33,472 nucleotides of DNA from Haloarculaceae archaeon (GTDB lineage Archaea > Halobacteriota > Halobacteria > Halobacteriales > Haloarculaceae): positions 1-33,472 of the forward strand of contig JBDGST010000082.1 in the NCBI GenBank assembly GCA_042217365.1, given 5' to 3'. Below the pieces are notes generated by a model. The model saw only the letters and a list, made by a program, of their open reading frames with translations, had not been told where the DNA came from and did not search any database. Position 1 is the first letter of the stretch. Each line of letters begins with the position of its first letter. Made by a program: the position numbers and the translations under genes. This document shows, one piece after another, positions 17,540 to 32,056 of the stretch.

Positions 17540-18313
17540 TCAGGAGAGTTCGGCGTCGCAGGCCGGGCAGACCCGGACGCGCGCCGGTATCTCGGTCCCG
17601 CAGTACCTGCAGAACTTCGTGTCCCCGGCGTCCGGCTTCCGATCGCCTCGACACGCGGGGCACTCCTCGCCGGTGTAAGTCCGCTCGTGCTCCTCGCAGT
17701 ACTCCCTGGTGTCCGAGTCGCTCCCGGCGCCGTCCGCGGAGCCGTCGTCCGCCGTCGCGACTTTCGACCGGTTGACGACGCTGTCGTCGACGGTGACCTC
17801 GCGCCCGTCTTTGACCGCCGACCCCTTCCCGGCTCCGTCGCCGGTCGCGGACCCGATCTCCGAGCGGTTGACGACGCTGTCGCGGACCTCGGTCCGGTTT
17901 TCGACCTTGTTCCCGGCGACGTAATCGCCGCCGCGGACCTCGACGCGCGCGTCGCGCTGGACTTCGAGTTTCAGCGTCGTCTGGTACCCGATCTCGATCG
18001 TCGCGTCGCGGCGGACCCGCTCGACGTGTCCCTCCCCGATATCGGTCTCGTCCCGGTTCGTCCGGACGATGACCCCGTTGGTGTTGTTGCGGTTCCGGAC
18101 TTCGAGGCAGTCGTCCCGGGCGTTCAGGACGACCGGCGCCGTGCCGTTTTTCTTCCGGGACACGGTCGCGTCGGCCACGCCGAGCCGGTAGATCTCGTCC
18201 CCCTGTGCGGCCAGGACCTCCTGTGTATCTCCCGGGTCGCGGTAGACTTCGGTCTCCGACTCGACCGGCACTTCGGCTGACTCCGTCCCCACGACCGAAA
18301 GATAACCCCTCAT
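17540..18313 (-). CDS. Zinc-ribbon protein with beta-strand-rich repeat region and two DSVVNRS motifs (paralogue of 28396..29028)
   Basis: 257 aa with alternating-pattern repeats (TLKLEVQRDARVEVRGGDYVAGNKVENRTEV), RDSVVNRSEIG and DDSVVNRSKVA, then C-terminal YCEEHERTYTGEECPACRG and FCRYCGTEIPARVRVCPACDAEL (double zinc ribbon). Confidence 0.6.
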   Translation of the reverse strand: MRGYLSVVGTESAEVPVESETEVYRDPGDTQEVLAAQGDEIYRLGVADATVSRKKNGTAPVVLNARDDCLEVRNRNNTNGVIVRTNRDETDIGEGHVERVRRDATIEIGYQTTLKLEVQRDARVEVRGGDYVAGNKVENRTEVRDSVVNRSEIGSATGDGAGKGSAVKDGREVTVDDSVVNRSKVATADDGSADGAGSDSDTREYCEEHERTYTGEECPACRGDRKPDAGDTKFCRYCGTEIPARVRVCPACDAELS

Positions 18314-18463: not shown

Positions 18464-19222
18464 TCACCCCGACTCCGCCCGCTGGTACAGCCGTTTCGTC
18501 CGCTCGGCCAGCCGGTCGACCCGGTCGCGCCGCTCGGCGTCCAGTTCCCCGTCGGTCGGCACCACTTCGAGCTGCTCGACCAGCGCGTCGAGGTCCGCCC
18601 GCACGTCGGCGTACGCGTCGTCGTCGACCGGATGCTCCCGGACGTAGTCGCGCAGTTCGGCGGCGCGCCTGTGACAGGCCTCGGCGGACTCGCCGGCCGC
18701 AGTCTGGAGGTGCTCGGCCAGCGAGGCGGCCAGGTAGTCGTCCCCGTCGTCGCCCCCGTCGGCGGGAGCGGCTTCCTCGACGTCCGTGAGCCGGCGGCGC
18801 GCGCGCTCGCGGACCGCCTCTGGCGTCGCGTCGGTCGCCAGCTCCGACAGCGTCTCGCGGATCTCGGCGACGCGCTCGTCCGGTGCGTCCCTGGCGAACT
18901 CCCGGAGCCGGTCGATCGCGTCCAGCCGGTCGTCTTTGAACGTTCCGTCGCGCGCGAGCGCGGCGAACGCCGGGACGACCACGCCGGCGGCGCCGTCGGG
19001 GTCGGATTCGAAACACTCCCGGAGCTTCTCGCGTGCGAGGTCGCGCTCGGCCCGCCCGGTCGCGTCGAGCGCGACCTCCCGGAGCGCTTCGAGCGCCGCT
19101 CGCTTGCCCTCCGGCCCGGCGTCGGGGAACGCGCGGGCGAGCTCCTCGATCGCCTCCTCGCGGTCCCGCGAGTACGGCGAGTCCAGCGCCGTCTCGCGGT
19201 GGGTCCGTATCGCCTCGTTCAT
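18464..19222 (-). CDS. HEAT-like alpha-helical repeat protein (252 aa)
   Basis: Start ATG 19222 (MNEAIRTHRET). Repeated ~30-aa helical units (EEAIEELARAFPDAGPEGKRAALEALREVAL ..., RLDAIDRLREFARDAPDERVAEIRETLSEL ...). Start is 31 nt downstream of the SPFH gene stop. Confidence 0.55.
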   Translation of the reverse strand: MNEAIRTHRETALDSPYSRDREEAIEELARAFPDAGPEGKRAALEALREVALDATGRAERDLAREKLRECFESDPDGAAGVVVPAFAALARDGTFKDDRLDAIDRLREFARDAPDERVAEIRETLSELATDATPEAVRERARRRLTDVEEAAPADGGDDGDDYLAASLAEHLQTAAGESAEACHRRAAELRDYVREHPVDDDAYADVRADLDALVEQLEVVPTDGELDAERRDRVDRLAERTKRLYQRAESG

Positions 19223-19253: not shown

Positions 19254-21095
19254 TCATAGTTCGGTCCCGCAGTCGGTACAGAACGCCTGGTCGGCCGGCA
19301 CGGCCGCGCCACACGACGGACAGGCCACGGAGCCGCCCGACCGGTCGGCCCCGCCGCCCTGGTCGCCGCTACCGCTCTCTTCGCCACCGCCGCTCCGGCC
19401 TCCGCTCTCGCCGCCACCGCCGCCCGGGCCGTCGCCGCCGCCCTGGACGATGGTCGTGTCCCCGGAGTCGCTCGACCCGCCCGCGTCGGGGACGATGACG
19501 TTGTCGGAGGTGTCCTCGGCGGCTGCCTCGGCCGTGTCGCCCATGTTGTCCATCGCGGACTCGCTGGTCTCCTGGACGCGGTCCATCGCGTCCTCCATGG
19601 TCTCGCGCAGTTCCTCGCGGAACTGTTCCTGGTCCTCGACGCGCTGGCGCTCGGTCTCGGCGTCGTGGGCCTCCTGGCGGGCTTTCGCGAGTTCGTCGCT
19701 CTCCTTGGCGCCCAGGGCTTCGAGCTGTTCCGGCGTGAGGTCCTCGGCCTTCTCGATCTCCGCGAGCTCCGCCACCGCCTCGTCGACGCTGTCCATGCTC
19801 GCCAGCGTGTCGAGGTCGACCTCGTCGCGGGCCTGGAGGCGCTCTCTCTCCACCTCGACCTCGTGTTCCTCGCGGCGCATCTCGATGTCCTGCTCGCGCT
19901 CCTCGACGTCCAGGCCGTCCATGTCCTTGCGCTTTTTCGCGTCCAGCAGGTCGTCTATCTCCGACATGTCCTGCTCGTGTTCTATCTCCCGGCGCTCGGC
20001 CTCGGCCTCCGTGCGCGTGGTCTTTTTCTCCTGGTCGTGCTCGACCTCCTCGCGCTCGGCCTCGTGGCGGTGGCGCCGCCGCATGTCGTCTTTCTCGTGG
20101 GACTGCTCGATCTCCTGGGTCTCCAGCTCGTGGTCGGCGCTCTGCCGGGCCGACCCCCGCCTGACCCGCTGGCGCTGGTCGTGGACCACCCGCTCGGTCT
20201 CGCGTTCGGTCTCGCGCTTGTCCAGCTCCAGCTCGTCGTCGGCGATGTCCTGCTTCTCACGCTCGATCTCGACCTCCTTGCGCCGCTCGCGGACCTCGTC
20301 GAGGTCGTCGCCGTACTCGAACGAGAGGAGGTCCACGAGCCGGAGCCCGTTGCGCTCCAGGGTCCGGCGCAGTTCGTGCTCGACGTCCTGCCGGAGGTCC
20401 CGTTTCAGCTCGCGGTTCCCGTAGAGGTCGTCGCGCTCGTAGCCGCTGATGGTCGCCTCTAACTCGTCGCGGATCGCGTCGCCCAGCGTCGCGGTCAGCG
20501 TCTCGGCGGTGACGGCGTCGCGGGTGCGCAGCATCTCCGTGAAGAACAGCTGCGGGTCGTCGACCTCGATCACGAGTTCGACCCCGACGCTGACGAGGTA
20601 GTCCGTCGCCGTCCGGACGTCGTCGACCTCGACCGTGACGGCGGTGGTCCCCTCGTTGACGAGAAAGACCGCGTAGTCCTGGCCCCGCCTGAAGTCCTTC
20701 AGCTTCCGGCCCAGCGAGTCGAGGGTGTGCTTGCCGGGGCCGAGTGTCCCCTTGATCTCGCCGTTCTCCAGCAGGAGCGCCCGGTTGCCCGCCTCGATCT
20801 TCACTTCCTCTTTCTGTCGCAGGCGCGCGAGGAACCCCCGAGCCTGCAGGTCGCTCCCGGTGGCGCGGCGGGCGAACTCGTACTCGCGCAGCTGCAACAC
20901 GTCGCTGTCGCCGGCCCGGGCGGCGTCCGGGTCCGCCCCGCCGGTCAGCTCCGCTCCGCACTCGGCGCAGTAGGCGGCGTCGGCCGGGTTGTCAGCGCCG
21001 CAACTCGGACAGCTCGCCGCCAGCGACGTCCCGCACTCCCCGCAGAACCGGGCGTCGGCCGGCGCCGTCGCGCCGCAGCTCGGACACTGCATCAC
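19254..21095 (-). CDS. Triple zinc-ribbon SPFH/band-7 (flotillin-like) protein with ~330-aa E/R/D-rich coiled coil
   Basis: N-terminal CPSCGATAPADARFCGECG plus CPSCGADNPADAAYCAECG (double zinc ribbon). SPFH-like core (VKIEAGNRALLLENGEIKGTLGPGKHTL ... VFLVNEGTTAVTVEVDDVRTATDYLVSVGVELVIEVDDPQLFF ... RELKRDLRQDVEHELRRTLERNGLRLVDLLSFEY). Long charged coiled coil, then a G/S-rich linker and C-terminal CPSCGAAVPADQAFCTDCG. Confidence 0.7.
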   Translation of the reverse strand: MMQCPSCGATAPADARFCGECGTSLAASCPSCGADNPADAAYCAECGAELTGGADPDAARAGDSDVLQLREYEFARRATGSDLQARGFLARLRQKEEVKIEAGNRALLLENGEIKGTLGPGKHTLDSLGRKLKDFRRGQDYAVFLVNEGTTAVTVEVDDVRTATDYLVSVGVELVIEVDDPQLFFTEMLRTRDAVTAETLTATLGDAIRDELEATISGYERDDLYGNRELKRDLRQDVEHELRRTLERNGLRLVDLLSFEYGDDLDEVRERRKEVEIEREKQDIADDELELDKRETERETERVVHDQRQRVRRGSARQSADHELETQEIEQSHEKDDMRRRHRHEAEREEVEHDQEKKTTRTEAEAERREIEHEQDMSEIDDLLDAKKRKDMDGLDVEEREQDIEMRREEHEVEVERERLQARDEVDLDTLASMDSVDEAVAELAEIEKAEDLTPEQLEALGAKESDELAKARQEAHDAETERQRVEDQEQFREELRETMEDAMDRVQETSESAMDNMGDTAEAAAEDTSDNVIVPDAGGSSDSGDTTIVQGGGDGPGGGGGESGGRSGGGEESGSGDQGGGADRSGGSVACPSCGAAVPADQAFCTDCGTEL

Positions 21096-21177
21096 CGATC
21101 ACCCCCGTCCGCGGCGGACGTGCGGTCCAGTCGGTCGTGTGCCGTTTCGACAGTGTCGTGTCGCTGTCCGAACATGG

Positions 21178-21635: not shown

Positions 21636-22802
21636 TCAGCCCTCCCAGTCGGCGAGGCTGGACTCGGTTTCCTCGATGGCCGCCTCGAGGTGGTCCTGCG
21701 TGATGCGTCGTATCTCGTCGGCCTCGCGGGCGTCCTGGAGGGCCTTGCGGGCCGCGTCCGTCGCGACCAGTTCCATGTCGCTGGCGGAGTACCCCTCGGT
21801 CCGGTCCTCGATGGTCTCCCAGTCTATCTCCTCGGTGAGGACCGGCCTGTCCCGGAGGTGGACCCGGAGGATGGCGCTGCGGGCTGCGGGGTCCGGCGGC
21901 GGCACCTCGATCCGCTCGTCGAACCGGCCCGACCGCTTGATGGCGTCGTCGACCGACTCGAGCAGGTTCGTCGCCGCGAACACGACCACGTCCTCGCCCT
22001 GGATGTCGCTCAACTCGGTCAGGATCTGGTTGACCATCTGGCGCTCGCTCTGGGTCTTCTGTGCGCCCCCGGAGCGCTGCCCGGCGATGGCGTCGACCTC
22101 GTCGACGAAGACGAGACACGGCTGGTTGTCCCGCGCGACCGCGAACAGGTCCGCGACGTTGTCCGCGGCCTCGCCGACCAGCGACGAAGTCAGGTCAGAC
22201 GGCGTCACCTCGACGAAGTTGTAGTCGAGCTTGCCCGCGAGCGCACGCGTGACGTACGTCTTGCCCGTTCCCGGCGGCCCGTAGAGGAGGACGCCGTTCA
22301 CGACGCCGAGGTCGTACTCCTCGTAGAGCTCCGGGCGTTCGAGCGGGTCGACGACCTTCTCGATGAGGGTCTGCTTGAGGTCGCTCATCCCGCCGACGTC
22401 GTCGAAGTCCAGGTCCGGCGGGTCCTCCAGGTACTCGCTCGCGTCGGCGACGTCCCCCTCGCCGTCCCCGTCCGCGTCGACCTCGTCGGGACTGTCCGCG
22501 TTCGACCCGCCTGTCGCGCCGGCGTCGGCGTTCGCGCTCGACCCGTCACGACCCGTTCCTCCCGACGCCCGTTCGGCGAGCGTCTCGGCTGCCTCCCGCA
22601 GGTTCGCCGCCAGGTCGCGTCGCTTCTTCGCGACGGCGTCCCGGGACTCCAGACCGGCTATCTCGTCGAGCAGTTCGGCGCACTTCCGGTAGTGCGTGGC
22701 GGCCTCGTCCGGTTCGTCGCGCTCGCGGGCCTTCTCGGCGCGCTCGCGGTGGCGCCGGTAGTCGTCTTTCAGGATCTCCCTGTGGGCGTCGTCTCCCAGC
22801 AT
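21636..22802 (-). CDS. MIT-domain AAA+ ATPase (Vps4/CdvC-like)
   Basis: N-terminal three-helix region (EAATHYRKCAELLDEIAG ...) resembling a MIT domain. Single AAA cassette with Walker A GPPGTGKT, Walker B CLVFVDEVD, second region of homology and arginine finger (SGRFDERIEV). Start is 22 nt downstream of the Snf7-like gene stop. Confidence 0.85.
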   Translation of the reverse strand: MLGDDAHREILKDDYRRHRERAEKARERDEPDEAATHYRKCAELLDEIAGLESRDAVAKKRRDLAANLREAAETLAERASGGTGRDGSSANADAGATGGSNADSPDEVDADGDGEGDVADASEYLEDPPDLDFDDVGGMSDLKQTLIEKVVDPLERPELYEEYDLGVVNGVLLYGPPGTGKTYVTRALAGKLDYNFVEVTPSDLTSSLVGEAADNVADLFAVARDNQPCLVFVDEVDAIAGQRSGGAQKTQSERQMVNQILTELSDIQGEDVVVFAATNLLESVDDAIKRSGRFDERIEVPPPDPAARSAILRVHLRDRPVLTEEIDWETIEDRTEGYSASDMELVATDAARKALQDAREADEIRRITQDHLEAAIEETESSLADWEG

Positions 22803-22824: not shown

Positions 22825-23487
22825 TCAGAGGTCGTCTATCGACACTTCTCCGGTGTCGATGTCGTCGTCGATGTCGATTCCCTCCTCGATGCTGACCTCC
22901 GATTCGGCCTCGATGTCGACCTCCTCGGCGGACATCTCGGAGGTGGCGATCTGCTCCATCACTTCCTCCTCTTCGCCGACTTCCATCTCCAGCTGGTCGT
23001 CCATGATCGGGACGTCCAGTGCGTCCTGGATCTCCTGCATGTCCTCCATTTCGATGCCGAACGACGCCATCCGCTCCATGATCTCGCTCTGGATCTCCTG
23101 GGCGTTGGCGTCACTCATCGCCTCGTCGATCGCGATGTCCTCGTCGTCGTGCAGGTCCATGATGTCCCGCATGCCCTGGATGCTGAGCACCGTGCCGAGC
23201 TTGACGTTGTTCGCCCGGTACTTCTTCTTCTTGATGGCGTATTTCTTCTTCTCGAACTTGGCCTTCTGCGCGTACTTCTTGCGCTGCAGCTCGCCCTCCT
23301 GGGCGCCCTCCTGGAGCAGTTTCCTGTACTTGCGCCGGTGTTTGTCCATCTCCTGCTCGAGCTTCTTCGAGCGGTGCTCCAGCTTCGAGATGTCCTTCCG
23401 GAGCTCCGTGTCGCTGTAAACGCTCTCTTCGAGCAGTGACTCGCCCGTACCGTTGAACCGTTCCTGAACCCAGTTGCGCAGTTCCAT
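22825..23487 (-). CDS. ESCRT-III / Snf7-like protein (PspA/Vipp1/ESCRT-III superfamily), 220 aa
   Basis: Basic N-terminal half (KKYAQKAKFEKKKYAIKKKKYRANNVKLGTVLSIQ) aligns by eye with CHMP4/Snf7 alpha1-alpha2 (KRAALQALKRKKRYEKQLAQIDGTLSTIEFQ). DIAIDEAMSDANAQEIQSEIMERMAS matches Snf7 alpha4-alpha5 (MDIDKVDELMQDIADQQELAEEISTAIS). Very acidic C-terminal tail ending ...EVSIDDL. High GC3 codons; the plus-strand overlapping ORF is S-rich junk. Confidence 0.7.
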   Translation of the reverse strand: MELRNWVQERFNGTGESLLEESVYSDTELRKDISKLEHRSKKLEQEMDKHRRKYRKLLQEGAQEGELQRKKYAQKAKFEKKKYAIKKKKYRANNVKLGTVLSIQGMRDIMDLHDDEDIAIDEAMSDANAQEIQSEIMERMASFGIEMEDMQEIQDALDVPIMDDQLEMEVGEEEEVMEQIATSEMSAEEVDIEAESEVSIEEGIDIDDDIDTGEVSIDDL

Positions 23488-23511
23488 GGTTGTATCGTTT
23501 GCCAGTCTGCT

Positions 23512-23586: not shown

Positions 23587-23871
23587 CTACTCGATCTCCG
23601 GTTTCGCTATCGATAGCGTCCCGACGATCCCCAGCGCCGCGCCGACGCCGGCGACCACGATCAGGAGACGCTTGTCCTCGAAGGCCAGGTCGAACAGCCG
23701 GGCCCCGAGGGTCGCCTCCGCGTAGACGACCGCCGCGCCGATCACCAGCCCGCCGACCGACCCGTAGACCACCCGCTGCTCCATCAGGCTGTACACCCCG
23801 ACGACCAGACCGACGCCCAGCACGACGTTCGCCAGTAACGCGAGCGCCATCGCCCAGAGTTCGAGAGGCAT
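23587..23871 (-). CDS. Small membrane protein (94 aa, 3 TM)
   Basis: LWAMALALLANVVLGVGLVVGVY, GGLVIGAAVVYAEATLG, LLIVVAGVGAALGIVGTL. Stop is 100 nt upstream of the Snf7-like gene. Confidence 0.5.
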   Translation of the reverse strand: MPLELWAMALALLANVVLGVGLVVGVYSLMEQRVVYGSVGGLVIGAAVVYAEATLGARLFDLAFEDKRLLIVVAGVGAALGIVGTLSIAKPEIE

Positions 23872-24193: not shown

Positions 24194-24349
24194 TCACTCT
24201 TCGTAGAACAGGAAGACGAGGATCTGACTCTCCCACTGGGTGACTTCGACGTCCCGTACGTCGTAGTGTTCGTGGAAGCTGTCCAGTTGCGACTGGATCT
24301 CTTCGACGTTGTTCGTCTGGTAGTCGAATTCGAGGATTTGCGTCTGCAT
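24194..24349 (-). CDS. Small conserved-looking ORF (51 aa), not in ORF track as a separate gene
   Basis: MQTQILEFDYQTNNVEEIQSQLDSFHEHYDVRDVEVTQWESQILVFLFYEE. Almost every codon is G/C-ending, i.e. genome-typical usage despite a low-GC amino-acid composition. It is the 3' tail of the artefactual 623-aa minus-strand ORF. Confidence 0.4.
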   Translation of the reverse strand: MQTQILEFDYQTNNVEEIQSQLDSFHEHYDVRDVEVTQWESQILVFLFYEE

Positions 24350-24547: not shown

Positions 24548-26098
24548 ATGGCGAAGAGGGCGCCAGGATTCATCGACGGCGGAGAAGCCGTCACGGACGA
24601 ACAGGCGCGGACCGAGATACTCGCGGGCGCGTTCGAAGAGGCGGCGGGCGGGTACTTCGAGCGTCAGGTCGAGTACGAGCAGGCGATCGCCGACGCGCGG
24701 GAGGACAGAGACGACGCCAAGCGCGCGGGGATCGCAGGCGTGATCGCGGGTCTGGTCCTCGTGGTCGCCGGGCCGCTGATGGACGTCCTGCCGGTGTCGC
24801 TGCTCGGGCTCGTCGTCGCGGCGGTCGTCGGCTATCTCAAGTACCGCGAACACGAGGCGGCGGTCGAGCGCATCGAGGACAACCGGCGTGCGCTCAGGGA
24901 GGACAGACCGGACGGGCAGGTGTCGTTCGTGTCGCAGGTCGCCGTCCCTGCGTATCTCGTCCAGTACAGCGACCGGCACATGGTCTTCGACGGGCTGAAC
25001 CAGGCGCCGCGGACCGACCTGGAACTCGCGCTGGTCGACGGCGACGCGCTCCACGGGGCGCGCGCGGACCTCGAAGAGGTCGCGGACGTCCTCGACGAGT
25101 ATCTGTCGGGCCAAGAGGTCCTCGACCCGGCGTTCGCACAGGAGGTCTGCCCGGGGATCACCGACCACCGGCGCCTCGAAAAGCCGGTCACCGACCGGAT
25201 GGACCGGATGACGGCGATCGCCCGGGACGTTGACGTCGAGTCGATATCGGTCAACGTCCACGCGAACGACGGGATCGCCCGCAGCGTTCGGACGCTCAGC
25301 CGCGACGGGCTCCTGCGAGGGGACGGCGACCTGCCGGTCGTCGAGACCGAACAGTCGATGGCCGAGTGCGAGCAACTCGTCACAGATATCAGGGGCGTCG
25401 AGCAGCAGGCGGTCAGCGGCGACATGCTCGACCAGGCGCGGGACCACCGCGACGCGGTCGTAGAGGTCGCCGACGAGTTCGCCGAACCGCTGGGCACGAA
25501 CGCGGAGACCGTGGCGGAGCACTTCGACGCCCACGCCGGCGCAGTCGAGGACAGCACCGCCAAGTTCGTCTGCGAGGAGTGCCTCGCCGAGGAACTCGCG
25601 GCGGTCGACGACGAACTCGACCTGGTGGCGGAGATCCTCAGCGAGGAGACGGGGAGTTTCGGCGTCGCGCTGAGCGACCCCGACCTCGACGAGATCACGG
25701 TCGACGGCGAGGGGTCGTTCACCGACCAGGTCAGGGCCGACATCGAGGAGCACATCCCGGTACTCGAAGACGAACTCCGCGAGGCGTACAACACGCTCGG
25801 TGACATGGGTCCCGACGGCGACTACTGCATGAAACACGAGAGCGTCGAGACGGTCCCGGTCGCCCGCGACGGTCACCTGTTCGGCGAGGTGTGGCGGAGC
25901 CTCTACTACGAGTTTCGGGGACCGATCATGGACAGCGTCGAGGACCTCGAACGCGAATCCGAGGAAGTCAGACAGAACAAGGAACAGAAGATGATCGACC
26001 TCGCCCAGTACGAACAGATCAAGGACTCGGCCGAGCGGGATTTCCACGCCGTCAAGGCCGACCACGACGCCGCCGAAACCATCGAACGGAGGCTGTGA
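24548..26098 (+). CDS. Membrane-anchored hypothetical protein (516 aa, TM hairpin near N-terminus, large acidic cytoplasmic domain)
   Basis: GIAGVIAGLVLVVAGPLMDVLPVSLLGLVVAAVVGYL forms two TM helices. The remainder is acidic with no recognisable motif. TGA overlaps the next ATG (26096-26100). Confidence 0.6.
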   Translation: MAKRAPGFIDGGEAVTDEQARTEILAGAFEEAAGGYFERQVEYEQAIADAREDRDDAKRAGIAGVIAGLVLVVAGPLMDVLPVSLLGLVVAAVVGYLKYREHEAAVERIEDNRRALREDRPDGQVSFVSQVAVPAYLVQYSDRHMVFDGLNQAPRTDLELALVDGDALHGARADLEEVADVLDEYLSGQEVLDPAFAQEVCPGITDHRRLEKPVTDRMDRMTAIARDVDVESISVNVHANDGIARSVRTLSRDGLLRGDGDLPVVETEQSMAECEQLVTDIRGVEQQAVSGDMLDQARDHRDAVVEVADEFAEPLGTNAETVAEHFDAHAGAVEDSTAKFVCEECLAEELAAVDDELDLVAEILSEETGSFGVALSDPDLDEITVDGEGSFTDQVRADIEEHIPVLEDELREAYNTLGDMGPDGDYCMKHESVETVPVARDGHLFGEVWRSLYYEFRGPIMDSVEDLERESEEVRQNKEQKMIDLAQYEQIKDSAERDFHAVKADHDAAETIERRL

Positions 26099-27141
26099 TG
26101 TCGGGGAACCAGAACGTCAGGGTCTCGGTCGACGAGCGGAAGATCGGCAAAGCCGCCGGATCGGCCGTCTCGGGCGAACTGAAAGGCGAACTCAGCTCGA
26201 TCAAGAGCAACACGAGCGAGACGGCCGACCAGGTCCGCGAGATGAAACGAGAAGTGAGCGCCCTCCAGCGGCGCGTCGAGAGCCTCGAGGAGCGGATGAC
26301 CGAGATCGAGCGGACCAAGGCCGAGGCCCAGCGGGAGGCCACCGAATCCATCAAGGACGAACTCGAACGGCAGCTGGAGGAGAAAAAGCGGCAGTTCGAG
26401 GAGAAAAAGCGGGACGTCCTCGGCGACTACCAGTCGAGCATCCGGCGGCTGAAAGACCGGTTCGTCAACTCGATCCCCGGGCAGAGCGAGGGGTTCGAGC
26501 GGGTGACCGAGGAGTTCGATCGAGCGGTCGAACTCCGGGACTCGGTCGTCGAGGAGGCACGGCGGCTCGGGAGCCACGGCGCGGCGGCCGTCCACGAGTA
26601 CCGCCGCAGACACGTCGAGGAGTCCCGGACGGCCTTTACCGACGCCATCGACGACTTCCTCGCCGACCGCCGGGAGACCGCGAACACGATCGACTCGCTC
26701 CAGACGGCGGTGCCCGGCGTCGACGGCAACGAGCGAGTGCACGTCCCGTTCTGGGTGGTCGGGATCGAGCGCGACGGCAGGGAAGAGGTCTACGTGTTGC
26801 CGATCCAGACGCGGGCGGAACCCGAAGCCGCGCCGACCGCCCGGGCGCCGTACGCGTCGTACCTCAAGCCCCACGACACCCACTACTACGGCGACTGGAC
26901 GGACGCGGTCGAGGCGTACGTCCGCCAGGACCACGTGCGCGACAGGCTCGCCGCCGACGACCCGACGTTCGCCGACCCCGACGTCCTCCGGGACCTCCCC
27001 GGCGTCCACGACAGGTTCGTGGACGCGCTCACGGAGTTCGAGTTCGGGGACCGGCGAACGACCGGGTCGACGACCCGACGGGCTGGGCAAGCACAGCGGC
27101 AGCGGCAAGCCGCTCGAACAGGGGCACAGAACGATGACTGA
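26098..27141 (+). CDS. Coiled-coil protein (347 aa)
   Basis: N-terminal heptad-rich region (VSALQRRVESLEERMTEIERTKAEAQREATESIKDELERQLEEKKRQFEEKKRD) followed by a globular domain. 8-nt overlap with the next gene. Confidence 0.6.
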   Translation: MSGNQNVRVSVDERKIGKAAGSAVSGELKGELSSIKSNTSETADQVREMKREVSALQRRVESLEERMTEIERTKAEAQREATESIKDELERQLEEKKRQFEEKKRDVLGDYQSSIRRLKDRFVNSIPGQSEGFERVTEEFDRAVELRDSVVEEARRLGSHGAAAVHEYRRRHVEESRTAFTDAIDDFLADRRETANTIDSLQTAVPGVDGNERVHVPFWVVGIERDGREEVYVLPIQTRAEPEAAPTARAPYASYLKPHDTHYYGDWTDAVEAYVRQDHVRDRLAADDPTFADPDVLRDLPGVHDRFVDALTEFEFGDRRTTGSTTRRAGQAQRQRQAARTGAQNDD

Positions 27142-28399
27142 GGAAGTACTGGGCGCCATCACGTCCGACAAGGTCGAGACCGACAACACGAACTTCGCGA
27201 CGCTGAAGGCCGACCAGACCTGCGAGGAGGCGCTGATCCCCCGGGACAACGCGGTCAGACAGCTCAACTGGCAGGTCACCCTTGAGAAAGGGTCCATCTA
27301 CAACCCCCAGGAGGACGTCGGCGTCTACGCCCAGGAGGTCGACTGCAAGTACGGGGTGCAGGTCGACGGCACGGTCTTCGGACGCGACGCCGTCTCCGTC
27401 GAACACGGGGGCGCGATGCACTCGGCCGCGAGCGACGAGGGCGAGGCGGCGCCGGTCATCGGGGCCCGGGTCCTCGGCTCGGTCGTCTCCGACGGGTCCG
27501 TCGAGGTGGTCTCGCCGGACTCGAAACTCGACGACTGGGAGCCCAGGCCGGTCACCGTCTACGGCGACCTCGTCGGCGGCCACGTCTCCATCGAGGAACC
27601 GACCGTCGTCTACGGGAACGTCCTCGCCGAGCAGATGCTCTGGGTCGACGCGCCGACGGTCGTGTTCGGCGACGTCCGCTCGGAGGGATCCCTCGAGGCG
27701 ACCGACCTGTTCGCGTTCTCGATAACCGCCCGCGACGAGGTCACCCTCGGCGAGCGCGTCGTCACGGTCAACCCCGTGGTCCGGTCCGACGAGGGGACGA
27801 TAACCCTCGTCGACGACGTCGCGGTCTTCGACTCGGCCACGCTCGCCCGCGTCGGGGACGCCCACGACGTCGACAGCGTCGCGGTCGGCCCGTGGGTGCT
27901 GGACGAGGAGACCGTCTGGGAGGGCGACCGGCTGGTCCCCGCCGACGTCATCGACCACGGTGACGGAGAACTCGCAACCCGGGCGTGGCGGACGGTGTCG
28001 GAACCCGATAGCGAGTACGCGTACGTCCAGTCGCTGCTACAGCGCCACGTCGCCGAGTTCCGGCGCGATCCCCCCGACATCGAGCAGTTCCGGTACGGCG
28101 GCCTCGTCAGCGTGGGCGAGAGCAGCCCCGACGACGACGGCGGCGTCACCGTCGAACACCACGGCGAGGGCGACGTCGTGCTTGGCGACCAGGAGAAGGA
28201 GGTGGAGGAAGAGGACCTGACGACCATCGACAACAGCGTGACGGACGTCACCGAGACGAAGACCGTCCACGACGAGCGCACGACCATCGAGGACAGCGTC
28301 CTCAACCGGTCCGACGTCGGGGGGGTCGGCGACGCGGACGGGAGCGACGGCGAAGCGGCCGACGGGACCCAGATGCCGGCGGAACCGCGGGAGGAGTGA
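27134..28399 (+). CDS. Bactofilin-like (polymer-forming beta-helix) protein with C-terminal DSVLNRS module (421 aa)
   Basis: Repeated windings of the form VTVYGDLVGGHVSIEEPTVVYGNVLAEQMLWVDAPTVVFGDVRSEGSLEA match the bactofilin/DUF583 pattern x-V-x-G-D/N-V-x-A. C-terminal block GDVVLGDQEKEVEE ... DERTTIEDSVLNRSDVG is shared with the next gene. Confidence 0.6.
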   Translation: MTEEVLGAITSDKVETDNTNFATLKADQTCEEALIPRDNAVRQLNWQVTLEKGSIYNPQEDVGVYAQEVDCKYGVQVDGTVFGRDAVSVEHGGAMHSAASDEGEAAPVIGARVLGSVVSDGSVEVVSPDSKLDDWEPRPVTVYGDLVGGHVSIEEPTVVYGNVLAEQMLWVDAPTVVFGDVRSEGSLEATDLFAFSITARDEVTLGERVVTVNPVVRSDEGTITLVDDVAVFDSATLARVGDAHDVDSVAVGPWVLDEETVWEGDRLVPADVIDHGDGELATRAWRTVSEPDSEYAYVQSLLQRHVAEFRRDPPDIEQFRYGGLVSVGESSPDDDGGVTVEHHGEGDVVLGDQEKEVEEEDLTTIDNSVTDVTETKTVHDERTTIEDSVLNRSDVGGVGDADGSDGEAADGTQMPAEPREE

Positions 28400-29028
28400 C
28401 CGTGGGCTACTGCGAAGACCACGACCGCGTGTATCGCGGCGCCGAGTGCCCCGACTGCGCCGGTTCGGCCGCGGGAAGCGACGCCGGACGGACCGCGGAC
28501 CCGGCGACGGGGCGGAACACCGGGGCCGGCGCGGACGGGGACGACCCCCGGTCGAGTGACGCCCGGGACGCGTCCAGGGACCCCGCGAACGTCCGCGAGC
28601 ATGTCGAGGACGGCGTCGCGGACGCGCTCGGGGACGTCGACGTCGACGTCGAAGACGGGGACGTGGTCGTCGGCGACCAGGAGAAGACCGCCGAGAAGAC
28701 CGTCCGGACCGAGATCGACGACAGCACCGCCGACGTCACCGAGGAGACGACGACCCGCGACGAGCGGACCACCGTCGAGGACAGCGTCCTCAACCGCTCG
28801 ACGGTCGAGGGCGACGCCGACGTCGAGGACAGCGTCCTCAACCGGTCGGACGTCGGAGACGGGGCCGGCGCCGAGGACTCCGCAGTCGAGCGGTCGAGCG
28901 TAGGCGGTGAGTCGGGCGGAGGAGGGGCAGAAACCGGAAGCCACGAAACGGAGTTCTGTATCTACTGCGGGGCGGAAGTCCCCGCCGGGAGCGAAACCTG
29001 CCCCCAGTGCGGGGAGTCCCTGTCGTAG
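28396..29028 (+). CDS. Zinc-ribbon protein with tandem DSVLNRS repeats (210 aa), paralogue of 17540..18313
   Basis: GTG start overlapping the previous stop (GTGA). N-terminal YCEDHDRVYRGAECPDCAG (compare YCEEHERTYTGEECPACRG in the 17540 gene). GDVVVGDQEK ... DERTTVEDSVLNRSTVEGDADVEDSVLNRSDVGDGAGAEDSAVERSSVGG. C-terminal FCIYCGAEVPAGSETCPQCG. Confidence 0.6.
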   Translation: MTVGYCEDHDRVYRGAECPDCAGSAAGSDAGRTADPATGRNTGAGADGDDPRSSDARDASRDPANVREHVEDGVADALGDVDVDVEDGDVVVGDQEKTAEKTVRTEIDDSTADVTEETTTRDERTTVEDSVLNRSTVEGDADVEDSVLNRSDVGDGAGAEDSAVERSSVGGESGGGGAETGSHETEFCIYCGAEVPAGSETCPQCGESLS

Positions 29029-29294: not shown

Positions 29295-31289
29295 TCAGGT
29301 GCCACACTGCAGCGACAGCCCGAGTTCGTCGAGGTAGAGCTGTTCGCCGGCTCCCTCGGCTTCGAGGTCGTTGAACGCCCGCTTGACGACGTGTGGCTCG
29401 TAGCCGTGCTCAACGACGTCCTCCAGCAGGACCGACTCGTGGGCGACGTCCTCGACGTACTCGCGCCGGATCGTCTCGACGCAGTCGCTCACTCGCTCCG
29501 CCTCGATCGGCGGCGCGAACAGGTCGGCGTTCTCGCTGGCGACCGGATCCGTCTCGTCGTACGCGACTGACCCGTCCTGGAGGTCGACCAGGCAGACGCT
29601 CAGGTACTGGCTGTACCGCGAGCGGGCGAGGTCCTCGGTCGTGACCTGGTCGCGCACGCGCTCGCTCCACCCGGTGGGCGACGCCAGGGCCAGCAGGTAG
29701 CCGTACTCCCCGTCCTCGGCCTCGGCGACGGCCTCGTTGACGACCGACAGCAGGTCGTCCAGGTCCGCCGGGGTGGCGTCGAAGCCGTTGGTCGCGAACG
29801 CCTCCAGGTCCGCGAGTACGCGGGCCTCGACGACCATCTCCGTGTCGCTGCCCAGACCGAGGTACCGCGAGGTCGTCACCTCGTAGCGCGCGGCCCCGTT
29901 GGTCGGGTAGCCGTCCGGGTCCCCGCCGTCGAGCAGCGACGCCACGCGCGGGCGCTCGCTCCGCCGGCTGCTCCGCCCCTCCCAGTAGCCGTCGGGCACT
30001 TCGAACGTCCCCTGGCGGGTCCGTAGCGAGTCGACCTCGGCCATCGAGATGTCGAACCGCCCGAGGTAGTCCATCTCCAGCACCTTCCCCATCGTCGCGG
30101 TGACGACGTTCTCGCCCTCGATCCCGGCGTCCTCTCCCGCGGGGACTGATTGCTCGACGTCGGCGACTCGCTCCTCGAGGGCCCGCTGTCGCTCGTCGAG
30201 CGTCTCGCGGGCCGTCTCGATCCGCTCGCGCTCGCGTTCGAGGCGCTCGACCTCCTCGCGGATCTCCTCGCGCTGGTCGCGCAGCGCCTCGATCTCGTCC
30301 TCGACGAGTTCCGTCGCCTCCTCGCGGGCCCGGCGGTCGGCCTCCTCGCGGGCGGTTTCTTTGACTGCTTCGAGGTCCTCGATCTTGACCCGCAGCCGCT
30401 GTTCCATGTCGGTCGTGCGCTCGATTCGCGCGCCGAGGTCGTCGAGGACGTCGCCCTCGTCGGCGCCCTCGCGGCGACGCTCGACCGCGTCGAGTTCCGC
30501 CCGGAGCTGCTCGGGGTCGGCCTCCCGACTCGCGAGTTCGCCCTCGAGCGAACTGAGCTTCGTCTCCAGCTCTCGCTGCTGGCGCTCGAACCGCTCGTCG
30601 ATCGTCGCCGAGAGGTCGTCGAGTTCCTCCCGGAGCTCGGCGCGGACCCGCTCGCGCTCGTCGGCGGCCTCGTTGACGGCCGTGACCGCCTCCTCGATGG
30701 CCTCGACCATGTGTTCGAGCCCGTGGGTCTCGACGTAGGTGAAAAAGCCCCGCCGGATCTTCTCGCGGCGGTCCTCGTACCGGTCGAGCAGGCGCTCGAT
30801 CACGTCCTGCTGGACCTCCGGGTTCTCGATTAGCTCGTCGACGTTGGCTATCTGGGTCGAGGTGTACTCCTCGACGAGTTCGTACACCTCGCCCTCCATG
30901 CGGCGGATCTTCGCCTCGATCTGGTCCTCGGAGAGCGCGTCGAACTGCTTGTACCGGTCGAAGTCGACGACCGCCTGCAGCTCGGCCTCGATGAAGTCGT
31001 CGGCCATCGCCCGGGGCACCGACGCCCCGTCCTCGGCGTAGAAACTGGCCGCGAGCAGGAGGCGCGCCAGGCGGAACGTCCCGCGAACGCGGTCGCGCTC
31101 GGCGCCGGTCAGGAAGTCCGGGCAGTCCTCGCTGAACTCCCAGACGAACTCCTCCTCGCTGGCCTTGATCTCGTTGTACCGCTCGACGCGGGTGCGCTCG
31201 GGCATCCGTTCGAGCGCGGCCAGGTCCTCGTCGATCACCGTCTCGGCCGCGTGTGTCAGTTCCTCGAACCGCTGTGCGCAGTCGCTCAT
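29295..31289 (-). CDS. Large coiled-coil protein (664 aa) with N- and C-terminal globular domains of unknown function
   Basis: Central ~300 aa of E/R-rich heptads (ELREELDDLSATIDERFERQQRELETKLSSLEGELASREAD ... EEVERLERERERIETARETLDERQRALEERVADVEQ). C-terminal domain contains GSDTEMVVEARV ... GYLLALASPTGWS, which could be a PD-(D/E)xK-like core (speculative). Confidence 0.6.
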   Translation of the reverse strand: MSDCAQRFEELTHAAETVIDEDLAALERMPERTRVERYNEIKASEEEFVWEFSEDCPDFLTGAERDRVRGTFRLARLLLAASFYAEDGASVPRAMADDFIEAELQAVVDFDRYKQFDALSEDQIEAKIRRMEGEVYELVEEYTSTQIANVDELIENPEVQQDVIERLLDRYEDRREKIRRGFFTYVETHGLEHMVEAIEEAVTAVNEAADERERVRAELREELDDLSATIDERFERQQRELETKLSSLEGELASREADPEQLRAELDAVERRREGADEGDVLDDLGARIERTTDMEQRLRVKIEDLEAVKETAREEADRRAREEATELVEDEIEALRDQREEIREEVERLERERERIETARETLDERQRALEERVADVEQSVPAGEDAGIEGENVVTATMGKVLEMDYLGRFDISMAEVDSLRTRQGTFEVPDGYWEGRSSRRSERPRVASLLDGGDPDGYPTNGAARYEVTTSRYLGLGSDTEMVVEARVLADLEAFATNGFDATPADLDDLLSVVNEAVAEAEDGEYGYLLALASPTGWSERVRDQVTTEDLARSRYSQYLSVCLVDLQDGSVAYDETDPVASENADLFAPPIEAERVSDCVETIRREYVEDVAHESVLLEDVVEHGYEPHVVKRAFNDLEAEGAGEQLYLDELGLSLQCGT

Positions 31290-31338: not shown

Positions 31339-31881
31339 TCATTGTTGGCTATTCGCGTAGTCCGCCAGTTCGGTCTCGAAGAAGTCCGCGAGGAACGACG
31401 GCGCGGGCGGGTAGCCGTCCACCCGGACCGTCACCGTCGTCGTTCCCCCGTCCCCGTCCCCGTCGACCCCGTAGGTGACGGTCGCTCGGCCCTTCTTCGT
31501 GTAGACCTCGTACTCGTTTCGCGCCGCCGACTGCAACACCGCCTTCTTCTTCGAGAGCATGTACTCGACGAACGACTCGACGGCGTCCGCCTGCGCGTCG
31601 ACCGATTGCTCGACCGTGTAGCGTTCGGTCGTGACGTCCGGTTCGACCGGTTCGAGCCGGTACGAGGCGACCTGGTCGGCGGGCACCTTGCCGACGAGGT
31701 CCTCGTAGAGCTCGTCGTGGTCGACGCCGTCGGCGACCCGGACCAGGCCCGACGGCTTCTCCACGTCGCCGTCGTCCCAGTTGTTGAACAGGTACTCGAC
31801 CCGCTTTCGCTCGGCGTCGTCCTCGTAGTCGACGACGAACAGGTACCGGTCGTCCCCGTCTGTCTGGTCGTTCCGTGTCAT
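31339..31881 (-). CDS. Hypothetical protein (180 aa) with Cas2/VapD-like N-terminal strand pattern
   Basis: Start ATG 31881 (MTRNDQTDGDDRYLFVVDYEDDAERKRVEYLFNNW ...), which by eye resembles the Cas2 beta1-alpha1 signature (LVLVFYDISDERRRARLSELL). The 50-nt gap to the 664-aa gene on the same strand suggests an operon. Confidence 0.45.
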   Translation of the reverse strand: MTRNDQTDGDDRYLFVVDYEDDAERKRVEYLFNNWDDGDVEKPSGLVRVADGVDHDELYEDLVGKVPADQVASYRLEPVEPDVTTERYTVEQSVDAQADAVESFVEYMLSKKKAVLQSAARNEYEVYTKKGRATVTYGVDGDGDGGTTTVTVRVDGYPPAPSFLADFFETELADYANSQQ

Positions 31882-32056
31882 GGTTCGTGGGTGCATCCGG
31901 CGTCCCCCCGCACCGCGTCACGGGTCTGTCGAACGCTGTCCGTTCGGATTGTGTGCAGCGACGAAAAAAAGTCTTTTCCATAATGGAGACTTCAGGGAGA
32001 CACCATTCGGTACGGTCCATGGAGAAACGCGACTGGAGAGTAAAGTCGAGTCCGGT

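Follow-up and report, generated by a model that had tools for sequence, protein, structure and literature searches.

The window, by which we mean the whole stretch of 33,472 nucleotides of Haloarculaceae archaeon contig JBDGST010000082.1 (assembly GCA_042217365.1), contains four genes, here called A to D, that form one translationally coupled operon. Their order was the same in all 12 distinct haloarchaeal loci that were set against the window. In the haloarchaeal loci with enough sequenced flank, A-D lie within about 10-15 kb of genes for an SPFH protein, a HEAT-like protein and a 51-aa protein, together with the main-clade ESCRT set. On the basis of this genomic linkage, we tentatively favour the view that A-D serve as a membrane-anchored scaffold or adaptor for membrane remodelling by ESCRT-III and SPFH proteins. 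If this is true, A-D would represent an undescribed accessory of the ESCRT machinery. The genes concerned are listed in Table 1.

Table 1. Coordinates of the A-D operon and of neighbouring genes in the window.
Feature	Position	Strand	Size	Remarks
Gene A	24548..26098	+	516 aa	
Gene B	26098..27141	+	347 aa	ORF and junction
Gene C	27134..28399	+	421 aa	
Gene D	28402..29028	+	208 aa	From GTG 28402; 210 aa if GTG 28396
s51, acidic protein	24197..24349	-	51 aa	Divergent from A; GC3 0.82
mem94, small polytopic membrane protein	23587..23871	-		Hydropathy, synteny; first gene of the ESCRT-III/Vps4 operon
Protein in the ESCRT-III slot	22825..23487	-	220 aa	Directly upstream of the AAA ATPase; position and synteny
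Vps4/CdvC-like AAA ATPase	21636..22802	-		Single classic AAA domain; PF00004, 1.9e-37
SPFH/zinc-ribbon protein	19254..21098	-	614 aa	Pfam DZR 1.5e-16, Band_7 1e-8, Zn_ribbon_3 8e-13
Helical-repeat protein, HEAT-like by eye	18464..19222	-	252 aa	ORF
Zn263, paralogue of D	17540..18313	-		125-aa N-terminal domain, DSVVNRS repeats, CxxH..CxxC knuckle, zinc ribbon
Coiled-coil protein	29295..31289	-	664 aa	Convergent with D; coiled-coil matches
arCOG08177-type protein	31339..31917	-	192 aa	Inactivated Cas2-like domain and TBP/DUF3568 domain

All four open reading frames that had been reported in a first-pass annotation of this DNA were present, and the tightly coupled operon that it described is indeed conserved, as judged from the gene order in 12/12 loci. 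A and B share 1 nt at their stop and start codons (TGATG at 26096-26100), and B and C overlap by 8 nt (ATGACTGA at 27134-27141). The 8-nt overlap was found again in both Haloplanus and Salarchaeum, and the 1-nt overlap is seen again in the gene calls of Haloplanus, while Salarchaeum has a 1-nt gap there. This recurrence indicates that the tight packing is conserved and not due to chance. An overlap had also been annotated at the third junction (GTGA at 28396-28399). However, the homologues of D begin with MPYC or MGYC, so that GTG 28402 is more likely to be the true start than GTG 28396. The A/B and B/C overlaps stand, whereas the C/D junction is tight (2 nt after the stop codon of C) but probably without overlap. 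GC3 values of 0.89-0.94 for all four genes and an acidic, halophile-type composition show that A-D are real coding regions.

The products of A-D appear to build a membrane-anchored protein assembly, possibly a physical complex, rather than to be enzymes. Protein A can be divided into an N-terminal helix, a hairpin at about residues 57-99 and a mostly helical cytoplasmic domain of about 420 residues. The hydropathy profile has a single hydrophobic stretch of 43 residues (57-99), consistent with a membrane hairpin of two helices, as the first-pass annotation had proposed. The large domain contains a split CxxC...CxxH zinc motif, and a helix of 74 residues forms its end; the AlphaFold2 model of protein A has a low pTM of 0.32 and gave no informative fold match. 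Protein B had rightly been described as a coiled-coil protein, and only generic coiled-coil families match it (residues ~25-205). Its C-terminal region is conserved, with an invariant VPFWV...E in an alignment of 12 orthologues. Protein B only weakly resembles the proteins that occupy the B slot in distant loci (Prob 28 and 8). The annotation of D as a double zinc ribbon was half correct: the C terminus is a zinc ribbon (PF13240, E 1.4e-6), but the N terminus is a conserved C-x2-H-x8-C-x2-C zinc knuckle. The two are separated by a disordered acidic linker whose DxSTT/EDSVLNRS repeats are also found in the tail of protein C.

Protein C starts with a conserved segment (residues 1-46), which is followed by a right-handed beta-helix (~47-231), a helical domain (234-319) in which an AWRT motif is invariant, and an acidic, threonine-rich tail that is disordered and has a GDVVxGDQEK...DxSTT...EDSVLNRSDVG module. 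The repeat strings that had earlier been quoted as a bactofilin/DUF583 winding pattern are present in gene C, and AlphaFold2 predicted the right-handed beta-helix with high confidence (pLDDT above 90), giving it about nine turns and two insertions. Membership of the bactofilin family itself was not borne out. PF04519 did not match the window protein at E <= 1, weak matches were seen in only 5 of its 38 close homologues (best E 0.042), and the family threshold was reached by neither the window protein nor any of the 38. One distant relative did exceed it (30.0 bits vs 27.9). When the C-family profile was compared with solved structures, bactofilin TtBac (6RIA) ranked first, though as a marginal match (E 0.028; 2.9e-4 with a broadened profile), yet hhalign gave a probability of just 31% for protein C against this sequence. 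The Bactofilin, Ice_binding, LbH_EIF2B and Hexapep models matched the distant relatives about equally weakly. We consequently describe protein C as distantly bactofilin-like, family membership not being established, and do not call it a bactofilin or halofilin.

Bactofilins (PF04519/DUF583; TtBac 6RIA, BacA 2N3D) likewise have a right-handed, single-stranded beta-helix whose turns comprise ~17-18 residues and include glycine-containing motifs, as predicted in C, and protein C too ends in a disordered tail. However, the bactofilin core has 5-6 turns and lacks the structured domains that flank the longer helix of C on its N- and C-terminal sides; such domains also set C apart from the haloarchaeal halofilins HalA and HalB. 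The second, head-to-head bactofilin domain of HalA and the signal peptide and 5-TM domain of HalB are absent from protein C. Furthermore, the C family is rare and patchy across Halobacteria (38 clusters; 4 GTDB species genomes) and is encoded in an operon alongside a dedicated anchor, a coiled-coil partner and a zinc protein, whereas HalA and HalB homologues in haloarchaea number in the hundreds (PMC11459167).

That the operon is divergently oriented to an ESCRT-III-like cluster, as noted previously, was substantiated by the correspondence of the divergent genes to the ESCRT-type cluster of Makarova et al. 2024 (PMC10936438). The main-clade euryarchaeal system defined there comprises Vps4 (arCOG01307), ESCRT-III (arCOG07402), arCOG09748 and arCOG08177, and the genes on either side of the operon agree with it in size, order and pairing. 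The ESCRT-III-slot gene lies directly upstream of the gene for a single-domain AAA ATPase, and the gene for a 192-aa protein with arCOG08177 motifs lies directly upstream of that for a ~660-aa coiled-coil protein. The ATPase has a helical N-terminal region of ~120 residues and matches the NCBIfam CdvC model over its full length (residues 10-382, E 1.2e-45), yet below the family cut-off; its closest solved sequences are Cdc48 D2 domains. The 220-aa protein, which is basic in its N-terminal half and acidic in its C-terminal half, showed no Snf7/PspA similarity by Pfam, PDB or hhalign tests, and we term it ESCRT-III-like on the basis of its position and the literature. It has at least 164 homologues, one of them from halophilic archaeon J07HX64, and an arCOG07402 ESCRT-III protein from this genome is listed by Makarova et al. 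2024 (PMC10936438). The 192-aa protein had no Pfam match; its segments YLFVVDYEDDAERKRVEYL and ESFVEYMLSKKKAVLQ agree with the arCOG08177 alignment in Fig. S3 of PMC10936438. In every case, the synteny of the compared loci places the 664-aa gene after the 192-aa gene. This is the order in which arCOG09748 comes after arCOG08177 in Table S2 of PMC10936438, and the 664-aa protein is for this reason probably an arCOG09748-type ESCRT component. Table S1 of PMC10936438 lists Vps4, ESCRT-III and arCOG08177 of Haloplanus natans with near-consecutive accessions, and arCOG08177 and arCOG09748 of Halosimplex halophilum; both genera are also found among the loci compared here. As far as the text of that paper goes, A-D and the 51-aa, HEAT-like and SPFH/zinc-ribbon genes are not described as components, and SPFH is mentioned for the Meth_adaptin type only.

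Wherever the sequenced flank sufficed, one or more of the SPFH, AAA, ESCRT-III-slot, 664-aa and 192-aa genes was located within 10 kb. The SPFH gene was present in all such loci; in its product, a double zinc ribbon at the N terminus precedes an SPFH/Band_7 domain and a long charged region, and another zinc ribbon forms the C terminus. The 51-aa gene, too, was kept in all haloarchaeal loci that were flanked by enough sequence. The HEAT-like gene was found in nine distinct loci (10 tblastn matches, two of which are the same Salarchaeum region), and is the fifth gene directly after D in Haloplanus and in loci L007 and L020. The linkage persists although the modules are ordered and oriented differently in Haloplanus, Salarchaeum, Halosimplex and Salinarchaeum, a pattern that is typical of functional coupling and not of inherited synteny. 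An A-B-C core also occurs on distant low-GC contigs from non-halophiles, and no AAA or ESCRT genes were detected near it in the sequenced flank (full 10-kb flanks in L008 and L013), which suggests that the core can work without ESCRT. Genes of the FHA, PP2C and Ser/Thr kinase types occur in the distant C-like loci, and one of the distant loci (L010) has a 52-aa look-alike of the 51-aa protein. These signalling genes resemble the kinase and phosphatase genes of main-clade ESCRT loci and the FHA, kinase and phosphatase genes of Halo_FHA loci (PMC10936438). The ESCRT-III-slot family has at least 164 clusters and the C family 38, so that the former is the more widespread and most such ESCRT loci must be without A-D.

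The linkage to ESCRT and SPFH genes in all adequately flanked haloarchaeal loci favours an ESCRT accessory over a halofilin-like cytoskeleton that determines cell shape. In such an accessory, protein A would insert its hairpin into the membrane and expose its long helical zinc-binding domain on the cytoplasmic side, with B as a coiled-coil partner. C would form a rigid right-handed beta-helix of about nine turns ending in the disordered tail, and D, which is small and has zinc motifs at both ends, would carry the tail module of C. Together, and perhaps as a polymer, A-D would mark a site on the membrane, where they would bring in or organise ESCRT-III and SPFH assemblies, the outcome being membrane repair or vesicle budding.

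Such a role would resemble the recruitment of PspA by YdjG/YdjH/YdjI or of ESCRT-III by CdvA. PspA belongs to the ESCRT-III superfamily, and its recruitment needs two membrane proteins as well as an SPFH protein that ends in a zinc finger (PMC8581546). The PspA-YdjG-YdjH-YdjI membrane-stress system of Bacillus subtilis thus has the same logic of an anchor, an SPFH-zinc protein and an ESCRT-III-type protein, but this is a functional analogy only. The system comes from a bacterium, and an AAA ATPase, a beta-helix protein and a coiled-coil partner are all missing from it. In Crenarchaeota, the membrane-binding, polymer-forming CdvA recruits ESCRT-III, which is then remodelled by a Vps4-type ATPase. 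CdvA-CdvB-CdvC therefore provides a parallel in its combination of a dedicated polymer-forming recruiter, ESCRT-III and a Vps4-type ATPase, although A-D showed no PRC-barrel or CdvA-type domain. Since haloarchaea divide with FtsZ, a division role for A-D is unlikely.

A self-contained bactofilin-type cytoskeleton that controls cell shape, in which C polymerises end to end, A anchors the filament and B and D are accessory, seems to us improbable but deserves consideration. It would account for the fold and turns of C, its best solved-sequence match, the one distant relative above the Pfam threshold and the ESCRT-free A-B-C cores, and one source has named a C homologue "polymer-forming cytoskeletal protein". 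Nevertheless, PF04519 gave no match to the window protein, and the weak hhalign score, the equally weak scores of hexapeptide, ice-binding and eIF2B beta-helix models and the rarity of the family argue against this explanation, as does the consistent ESCRT and SPFH linkage. Moreover, the structured domains flanking the helix of C could block the end-to-end stacking of bactofilins.

It is less probable still that the genes represent a conflict or defence module or the cargo of a mobile island, with A as a SLATT-like two-helix membrane effector triggered via its zinc-ribbon, beta-helix and ATPase partners. This idea could draw on the patchy spread over Halobacteria, a chromosomal site of the island that differs from genome to genome, a drop in GC at 23-24 kb, matches of the AAA ATPase to the PADLOC IetA models, and one A homologue with precomputed matches across the hairpin region to PF11239 and to PF18181, which we take to be a SLATT family. 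However, the IetA match reflects generic AAA similarity, and A, C and D had no PADLOC or PHROG match and no viral-contig matches, the viral-contig search revealing no relative of C. No tRNA gene was found in the window, no integrase or transposase was seen among the scanned genes, A-D contain no nuclease, protease or NTPase domain nor any other effector domain that could be recognised, and the neighbours match a described ESCRT system. We give similarly little credence to a membrane-tethered nucleic-acid-handling complex, such as a chromosome or plasmid tether, in which zinc ribbons and the HhH domains of some homologues bind DNA or RNA. Zinc knuckles or ribbons are indeed present in A, D, Zn263 and the SPFH protein, non-halophile relatives of C contain a Cys4 insert as well as zinc ribbons at the C terminus, and the C homologues P0012 and P0015 end in HhH domains (PF14520, 5.7e-13). 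Yet this fusion is rare (2/38), archaeal zinc ribbons are often protein-protein modules, and A, C and D are strongly acidic (D+E 22-25%, K+R 6-9%). Genes for helicases, nucleases, partition ATPases or recombinases are also absent from the conserved set.

Lastly, C, D and Zn263 have a tail module in common, GDVVxGxQxK-(DxSTT)n-EDSVVNRSDIG. We speculate that this module is likely to be a docking or co-assembly element, which might be recognised by the ATPase or controlled via threonine phosphorylation. An apparent resemblance of Zn263 to FHA domains, seen by eye, was not confirmed. In the C-type protein P0032, the C-terminal zinc ribbon known from D is fused into the same polypeptide.

The four plus-strand genes that we refer to as A to D, encoding a membrane-hairpin protein, a coiled-coil protein, a beta-helix protein and a small zinc protein, were found exactly where the first-pass annotation had placed them. 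The three junction sequences it had reported were likewise confirmed, namely TGATG at 26096-26100 (A/B), ATGACTGA at 27134-27141 (B/C) and GTGA at 28396-28399 (C/D). The coding signature of these genes is typical of a high-GC halophile, with GC3 values of 0.89-0.94 and an Asp plus Glu content of 20-25%, and the window proteins have been deposited under hypothetical-protein tags (ABEJ40_057xx; contig of 33,472 bp from a Haloarculaceae MAG). Independent gene calls of Haloplanus pelagicus and Salarchaeum sp. contain the same 8-nt overlap between B and C; at the A/B junction there is a 1-nt overlap in Haloplanus and a 1-nt gap in Salarchaeum. These near-identical junctions indicate that the tight packing of the genes is conserved. 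Since D homologues start with MPYC or MGYC, the translation start of D is most likely the GTG at 28402 (MGYCEDH..., 2 nt past the stop codon of C) rather than the codon at 28396.

Features of the four-gene operon and of its neighbourhood in the window
Feature	Position	Strand	Remarks
A	24548-26098	+	ORF, 516 aa
B	26098-27141	+	ORF, 347 aa
C	27134-28399	+	ORF, 421 aa
D	28396-29028	+	ORF, 210 aa as reported; 208 aa from GTG at 28402
s51, 51-aa gene	24197-24349	-	divergently placed; in every haloarchaeal locus with enough flank, position variable
mem94, 220-aa protein and AAA ATPase operon	23871 down to 21636	-	neighbour module
614-aa SPFH protein	19254-21098	-	double zinc ribbon, SPFH/Band_7, zinc ribbon
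252-aa helical-repeat gene	18464-19222	-	HEAT-like by eye; kept in 9 distinct related loci
Zn263, D paralogue	17540-18313	-	present in some loci
192-aa and 664-aa coiled-coil operon	31917 down to 29295	-	neighbour module
Tail module sites	C 28160-28330; D 28650-28900; Zn263 17640-17900

All window proteins were compared by tblastn with 14 haloarchaeal loci, 12 of them distinct. The P0097 locus was too short to be of use. The order A-B-C-D was identical in every locus compared, and the conservation of the operon thus extends to all 12 distinct loci. Moreover, a constant set of neighbour genes accompanies A-D wherever the contig reaches far enough. The neighbour modules vary in order and orientation among genera and yet remain spaced within about 10-15 kb, and this combination of reshuffling and continued proximity is a classic signature of functional coupling between A-D and these modules. 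In Haloplanus and in two further loci (L007 and L020), the 252-aa gene is even the fifth gene directly after D. The adjacency to an ESCRT-III-like cluster that had been noted previously is real, and the linkage is tighter than had been proposed. The chromosomal flanks of the island differ from genome to genome; the window contains no tRNA genes, and no integrase or viral genes were seen among the genes scanned. The C family comprises 38 clusters among 5.8 billion proteins, all of them haloarchaeal, and a search of 185,579 species genomes in GTDB gave four hits, in Halosimplex marinum, Salarchaeum sp. III, Haloplanus litoreus and a MAG of Salinarchaeum. The A family is distributed in the same way. 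The product of s51 is an acidic peptide (MQTQILEFDY...FLFYEE) that matched no family.

The designation of the neighbouring genes as an ESCRT-III-like cluster proved essentially right, and the cluster matches a previously described module, the main-clade euryarchaeal ESCRT system of Makarova et al. (2024; PMC10936438). According to the main text and tables of that study, this system comprises Vps4 (arCOG01307), an ESCRT-III gene (arCOG07402) upstream of it, arCOG09748, a helical protein of about 600 aa with a coiled coil and a C-terminal winged helix, and arCOG08177, a protein of about 170 aa with an inactivated Cas2 domain and a TBP/DUF3568 domain. The same tables list arCOG08177, ESCRT-III and Vps4 of Haloplanus natans with near-consecutive accessions, and Halosimplex halophilum is likewise listed with main-clade components. 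The 192-aa protein of the window contains the motifs YLFVVDYEDDAERKRVEYL and ESFVEYMLSKKKAVLQ, which match the arCOG08177 alignment (Fig. S3 of PMC10936438), and it is followed by the 664-aa gene, which mirrors the position of arCOG09748 after arCOG08177 in Table S2 of the same study. Judged by motifs and gene order, arCOG08177 thus lies beside a putative arCOG09748, as expected for a main-clade neighbourhood. The AAA ATPase has a single classic AAA domain (PF00004, 1.9e-37) plus an AAA lid domain. The CdvC model of NCBIfam aligned with it over the full length (residues 10-382, E 1.2e-45) at a score of 156, which is below the cut-off of 650, and over the ATPase core the PAN and FtsH models outscored CdvC.

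The 220-aa gene, by its size and its position directly upstream of the AAA gene, fits the ESCRT-III slot. This arrangement is conserved, and the J07HX64 genome, for which an arCOG07402 protein is listed in PMC10936438, encodes a homologue 69% identical to its product. No Snf7/PspA signal was obtained in Pfam with the single sequence or with 30 homologues, no ESCRT-III signal was obtained in the PDB by phmmer or profile, and hhalign revealed no similarity between the 220-aa family and yeast Snf7, for which an approximate sequence was used. It should be noted that the assignment of this protein as ESCRT-III is a weak point of our interpretation, as it rests on position, on the charge pattern, with a basic N-terminal and an acidic C-terminal half, and on the literature. 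The SPFH protein has a long charged E/R/D-rich region between its SPFH/Band_7 domain and its C-terminal zinc ribbon. In this respect it resembles YdjI of B. subtilis, the recruiter of PspA, in which an SPFH domain is combined with a region of low complexity plus a zinc finger. The main text of PMC10936438 mentions neither A-D nor the 51-aa and HEAT-like genes, nor an SPFH protein of the main clade.

No Pfam or NCBIfam family matched C. An AlphaFold2 model based on an alignment of 38 sequences predicted a beta-helix at residues ~47-231 with pLDDT values mostly above 90, then a helical domain (234-319) and, last, a disordered tail (317-414). The modelled beta-helix is single-stranded and right-handed, as are those of bactofilins. 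In the sequence it corresponds to about nine turns, each 17-18 residues long and with turns of the YG[DN]V type, about 185 residues overall; it is interrupted by two insertions (98-107 and 126-139) and preceded by a conserved structured N-terminal segment. The beta-helix claimed in the first-pass annotation is thus supported by the model, whereas the assignment of C to the bactofilin family is not, the window protein having no match to PF04519 at E <= 1. Membership in this family is defined by a Pfam gathering score of 27.9 bits. PF04519 gave weak matches in 5 of 38 close C homologues (best E 0.042). Among 44 distant relatives scanned with Pfam, 14 were touched by Bactofilin (best 3.6e-7), 11 by Ice_binding and 8 by LbH_EIF2B, and only P0144 of ten distant relatives scanned singly passed the Bactofilin gathering score, with 30.0 bits. 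When the C-family profile was compared with all PDB sequences, the bactofilin TtBac (6RIA) ranked first at an E of 0.028, and hhalign of the C family against the TtBac sequence gave a probability of 31%. With a broadened beta-helix profile of 33 sequences, distant relatives included, 6RIA again ranked first (E 2.9e-4, spanning almost the whole bactofilin domain); hexapeptide acyltransferases followed from 0.0046 with ice-binding proteins behind them, and BacA (2N3D) was found at an E of 0.28.

The architecture of C also departs from that of the known families. Bactofilins polymerise into filaments independently of nucleotides and have a compact core of about six turns (~100 aa), whose free ends stack head to head and which is flanked only by disordered tails, whereas the helix of C has about nine turns and is bounded on either side by structured domains. 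In the halofilin HalA (PMC11459167), two bactofilin subdomains lie head to head and are linked by an alpha-helical hairpin; in C, one continuous beta-helix is followed by the helical domain, and a second beta-helix is absent from the model. HalB combines an extracellular bactofilin domain with a Sec signal peptide and with a transmembrane domain of five helices (PMC11459167), features that are missing from C, which has no hydrophobic segment. Because the family scores fall short and the architecture differs, we refer to C as a bactofilin-like beta-solenoid rather than a bactofilin or halofilin; the evidence for a relationship is suggestive and below family standards, and C could belong to the bactofilin superfamily as a very remote member. 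Two C homologues, P0012 and P0015, have helix-hairpin-helix domains at their C-terminal end (PF14520, 5.7e-13), which hints at nucleic-acid binding in some C variants.

Hydropathy analysis of A revealed one hydrophobic stretch of 43 residues (57-99), which in the AlphaFold2 model (mean pLDDT 74, pTM 0.32) lies around the turn that joins two long helices, 36-77 and 81-118. The hairpin is followed in this model by a mixed alpha/beta and helical cytoplasmic region that ends in a helix of 74 residues. A CxxC (342/345) and a CxxH (427/430) motif are nearly invariant across 42 A homologues. B matched coiled-coil types only, over residues ~25-205, and its C-terminal region, which contains VPFWV...E, is conserved. 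In D, a conserved N-terminal C-x2-H-x8-C-x2-C knuckle is followed by an acidic linker, and a zinc ribbon is located at the C-terminus (PF13240, 1.4e-6).

A tail module of the form GD[VI]VxGxQxK - (DxSTT)n - [ED]DSV[VL]NRS[DE][IV]G is common to C, D and Zn263. D contains it two to three times with a period of about 16-17 residues. In Zn263, a conserved N-terminal domain of 125 aa is followed by two DSVVNRS repeats, the knuckle YCEEHERTYTGEECPAC as in D and a C-terminal zinc ribbon. This N-terminal domain looked FHA-like by eye, an assignment that was dropped after nothing was found in Pfam at E <= 10 or in a PDB search. The tail module is also joined to a three-TM domain in the proteins P0141 and P0142, and P0032 is a C-type protein with the tail module and a zinc ribbon at its end. 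AlphaFold2 predicts the tail to be disordered (pLDDT ~30), and its repeats are rich in TxxD motifs. That several proteins of the same neighbourhood bear a common portable tail suggests that it may serve as a shared docking or co-assembly element. How it would do so is a matter of speculation: it could be recognised by the N-domain of the AAA ATPase, be added as a beta-strand to the helix of C, or be regulated through phospho-threonine, the last option being raised by the many TxxD motifs and by the FHA, PP2C and kinase genes in related loci.

When 1.84 billion representative proteins were searched exhaustively with a profile, only 75 relatives of C came back, in two groups. Many of them are from non-halophiles and share the layout of C, from the N-terminal segment through the beta-helix to a Cys4 insert and a W-x-W-R motif, the counterpart of the invariant AWRT in halophiles; some of these end in a zinc ribbon and are in effect C+D fusions. 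The others are short proteins that match the C-terminal tail only. In four of the distant loci (L008, L009, L013 and L014), an A-like gene is followed by a coiled-coil gene (~300-340 aa) and then by a C-like gene. The A-like genes were related to the A family by hhalign (Prob 96.6 for L008, 89 for L009 and 87 for L013), and those of L008 and L009 have the hairpin and the split zinc motif. For the proteins in the B slot of distant loci, hhalign against the B family gave weak Prob values of 28% and 8%, and they are taken as putative orthologues of B from position and architecture. The C-like gene of L011 comes after a coiled-coil gene and is itself followed by one for a Ser/Thr kinase; the contig ends before the A slot. 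L010 has a 52-aa look-alike of s51 (3867-4025, minus strand; ending ...VLVVYEE) together with a repeat protein and genes of the FHA and PP2C types. Neither L008 nor L013, whose flanks extend the full 10 kb, contains an AAA or ESCRT gene, and the distant contigs have a GC content of 36-55%. Since distant loci carry the core in the absence of AAA or ESCRT genes, A-(B)-C is an older module that is independent of ESCRT, and its constant linkage to genes of the ESCRT and SPFH types is a trait of haloarchaea.

The distant loci also yielded several minor observations. The repeat protein of L010 (630 aa) occupies a place similar to that of the 252-aa HEAT-like gene. Genes for an FHA protein (PF00498, 1.2e-6), a PP2C phosphatase and a Ser/Thr kinase lie near distant C-like genes (L010 4800-6390; L011 2074-4125). 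As described in the main text of PMC10936438, Ser/Thr kinase and phosphatase genes are often found beside main-clade ESCRT genes, and FHA, kinase and phosphatase genes occur in Halo_FHA loci. The L010 proteins encoded at 1971-3863 and 4155-4649 share a near-identical C-terminal peptide (...WESxGFxVxEL...YxTLRKQIEG), which parallels the shared-tail principle of the haloarchaeal loci.

Tentatively, we favour a reading of A-D as a scaffold or adaptor anchored in the membrane, which would cooperate with ESCRT-III/Vps4 and with the SPFH protein when membranes are repaired or vesicles are formed. Its closest functional analogue is the PspA-YdjGHI system of B. subtilis, in which PspA, a member of the ESCRT-III superfamily, depends for its recruitment to the membrane on a pair of membrane proteins together with an SPFH protein that has a zinc finger at its C-terminus (PMC8581546); CdvA is a second functional analogue. 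The distant loci lacking ESCRT genes would suit an autonomous shape cytoskeleton of the bactofilin type. We consider this unlikely, as the helix of C is capped, the C family is rare and the linkage to ESCRT genes is invariable in haloarchaea. That A-D represent a defence or mobile module is improbable, as neither PADLOC nor PHROG nor viral-contig comparisons lend support to it. In PADLOC-DB v2, A, C, D and the SPFH, 220-aa and 192-aa proteins were unmatched, B and the 664-aa protein matched just the coiled-coil regions of ZorA, JetC and LmuB, and the AAA ATPase matched IetA and TRIP13 generically; PHROGs and the viral-contig scan gave nothing specific. A complex that tethers nucleic acids seems, by a shade, more improbable still, and the residual probability goes to an explanation outside those considered here.

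The scaffold or adaptor reading can be extended to a more specific proposal, which we regard as doubtful though worth stating. The triad of anchor, coiled-coil protein and beta-helix protein, with the zinc-ribbon protein separate or fused, might be a hitherto unrecognised membrane-anchored beta-solenoid scaffold that is sparse but widespread and probably archaeal. In haloarchaea it would have been recruited as a site-defining upstream adaptor of ESCRT-III/Vps4/SPFH, a functional counterpart of CdvA or ESCRT-I/II, with the DxSTT...DSVVNRS tails as phospho-regulated or ATPase-recognised assembly tags.

These proposals bear on the question of what task the ESCRT-type machinery performs in FtsZ-dividing Euryarchaeota and how it is targeted to the membrane. 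Published comparative work names, in its main text, Vps4, ESCRT-III and two accessory arCOG families, and no membrane anchor or scaffold. If the linkage is functional, A-D together with the SPFH/zinc-ribbon, HEAT-like and 51-aa genes are candidates for this missing targeting layer, and they are testable in culturable Haloplanus, Halosimplex or Salarchaeum strains. Archaeal cell biology would then gain a third, structurally distinct bactofilin-like lineage, and the parallel to bacterial PspA-SPFH would support the idea of an ancient alliance of SPFH scaffolds with polymers of the ESCRT-III type. Should the linkage be non-functional, a conserved protein triad outside any current curated family would still remain. 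Both among bactofilin-like beta-solenoids and among archaeal ESCRT neighbourhoods, the four-gene module and its extra partners appear to be undescribed.

Lastly, two further small ORFs were noted on the minus strand. A putative 110-aa ORF between the SPFH and AAA genes (21178-21510) matched no family and is kept only in Halosimplex marinum. An 81-aa ORF directly downstream of the 664-aa gene (29036-29281; GC3 0.93) looks by eye like a membrane protein with two hydrophobic segments and is also conserved only in Halosimplex marinum (L004, 62% identity). The GC content dips to about 0.60 at 23001-24000 and 32001-33000, compared to 0.66-0.77 elsewhere in the window. By inspection, the former dip falls on the gene of the lysine-rich 220-aa protein and on the divergent intergenic region, and the latter lies in an apparently non-coding stretch after the 192-aa gene.
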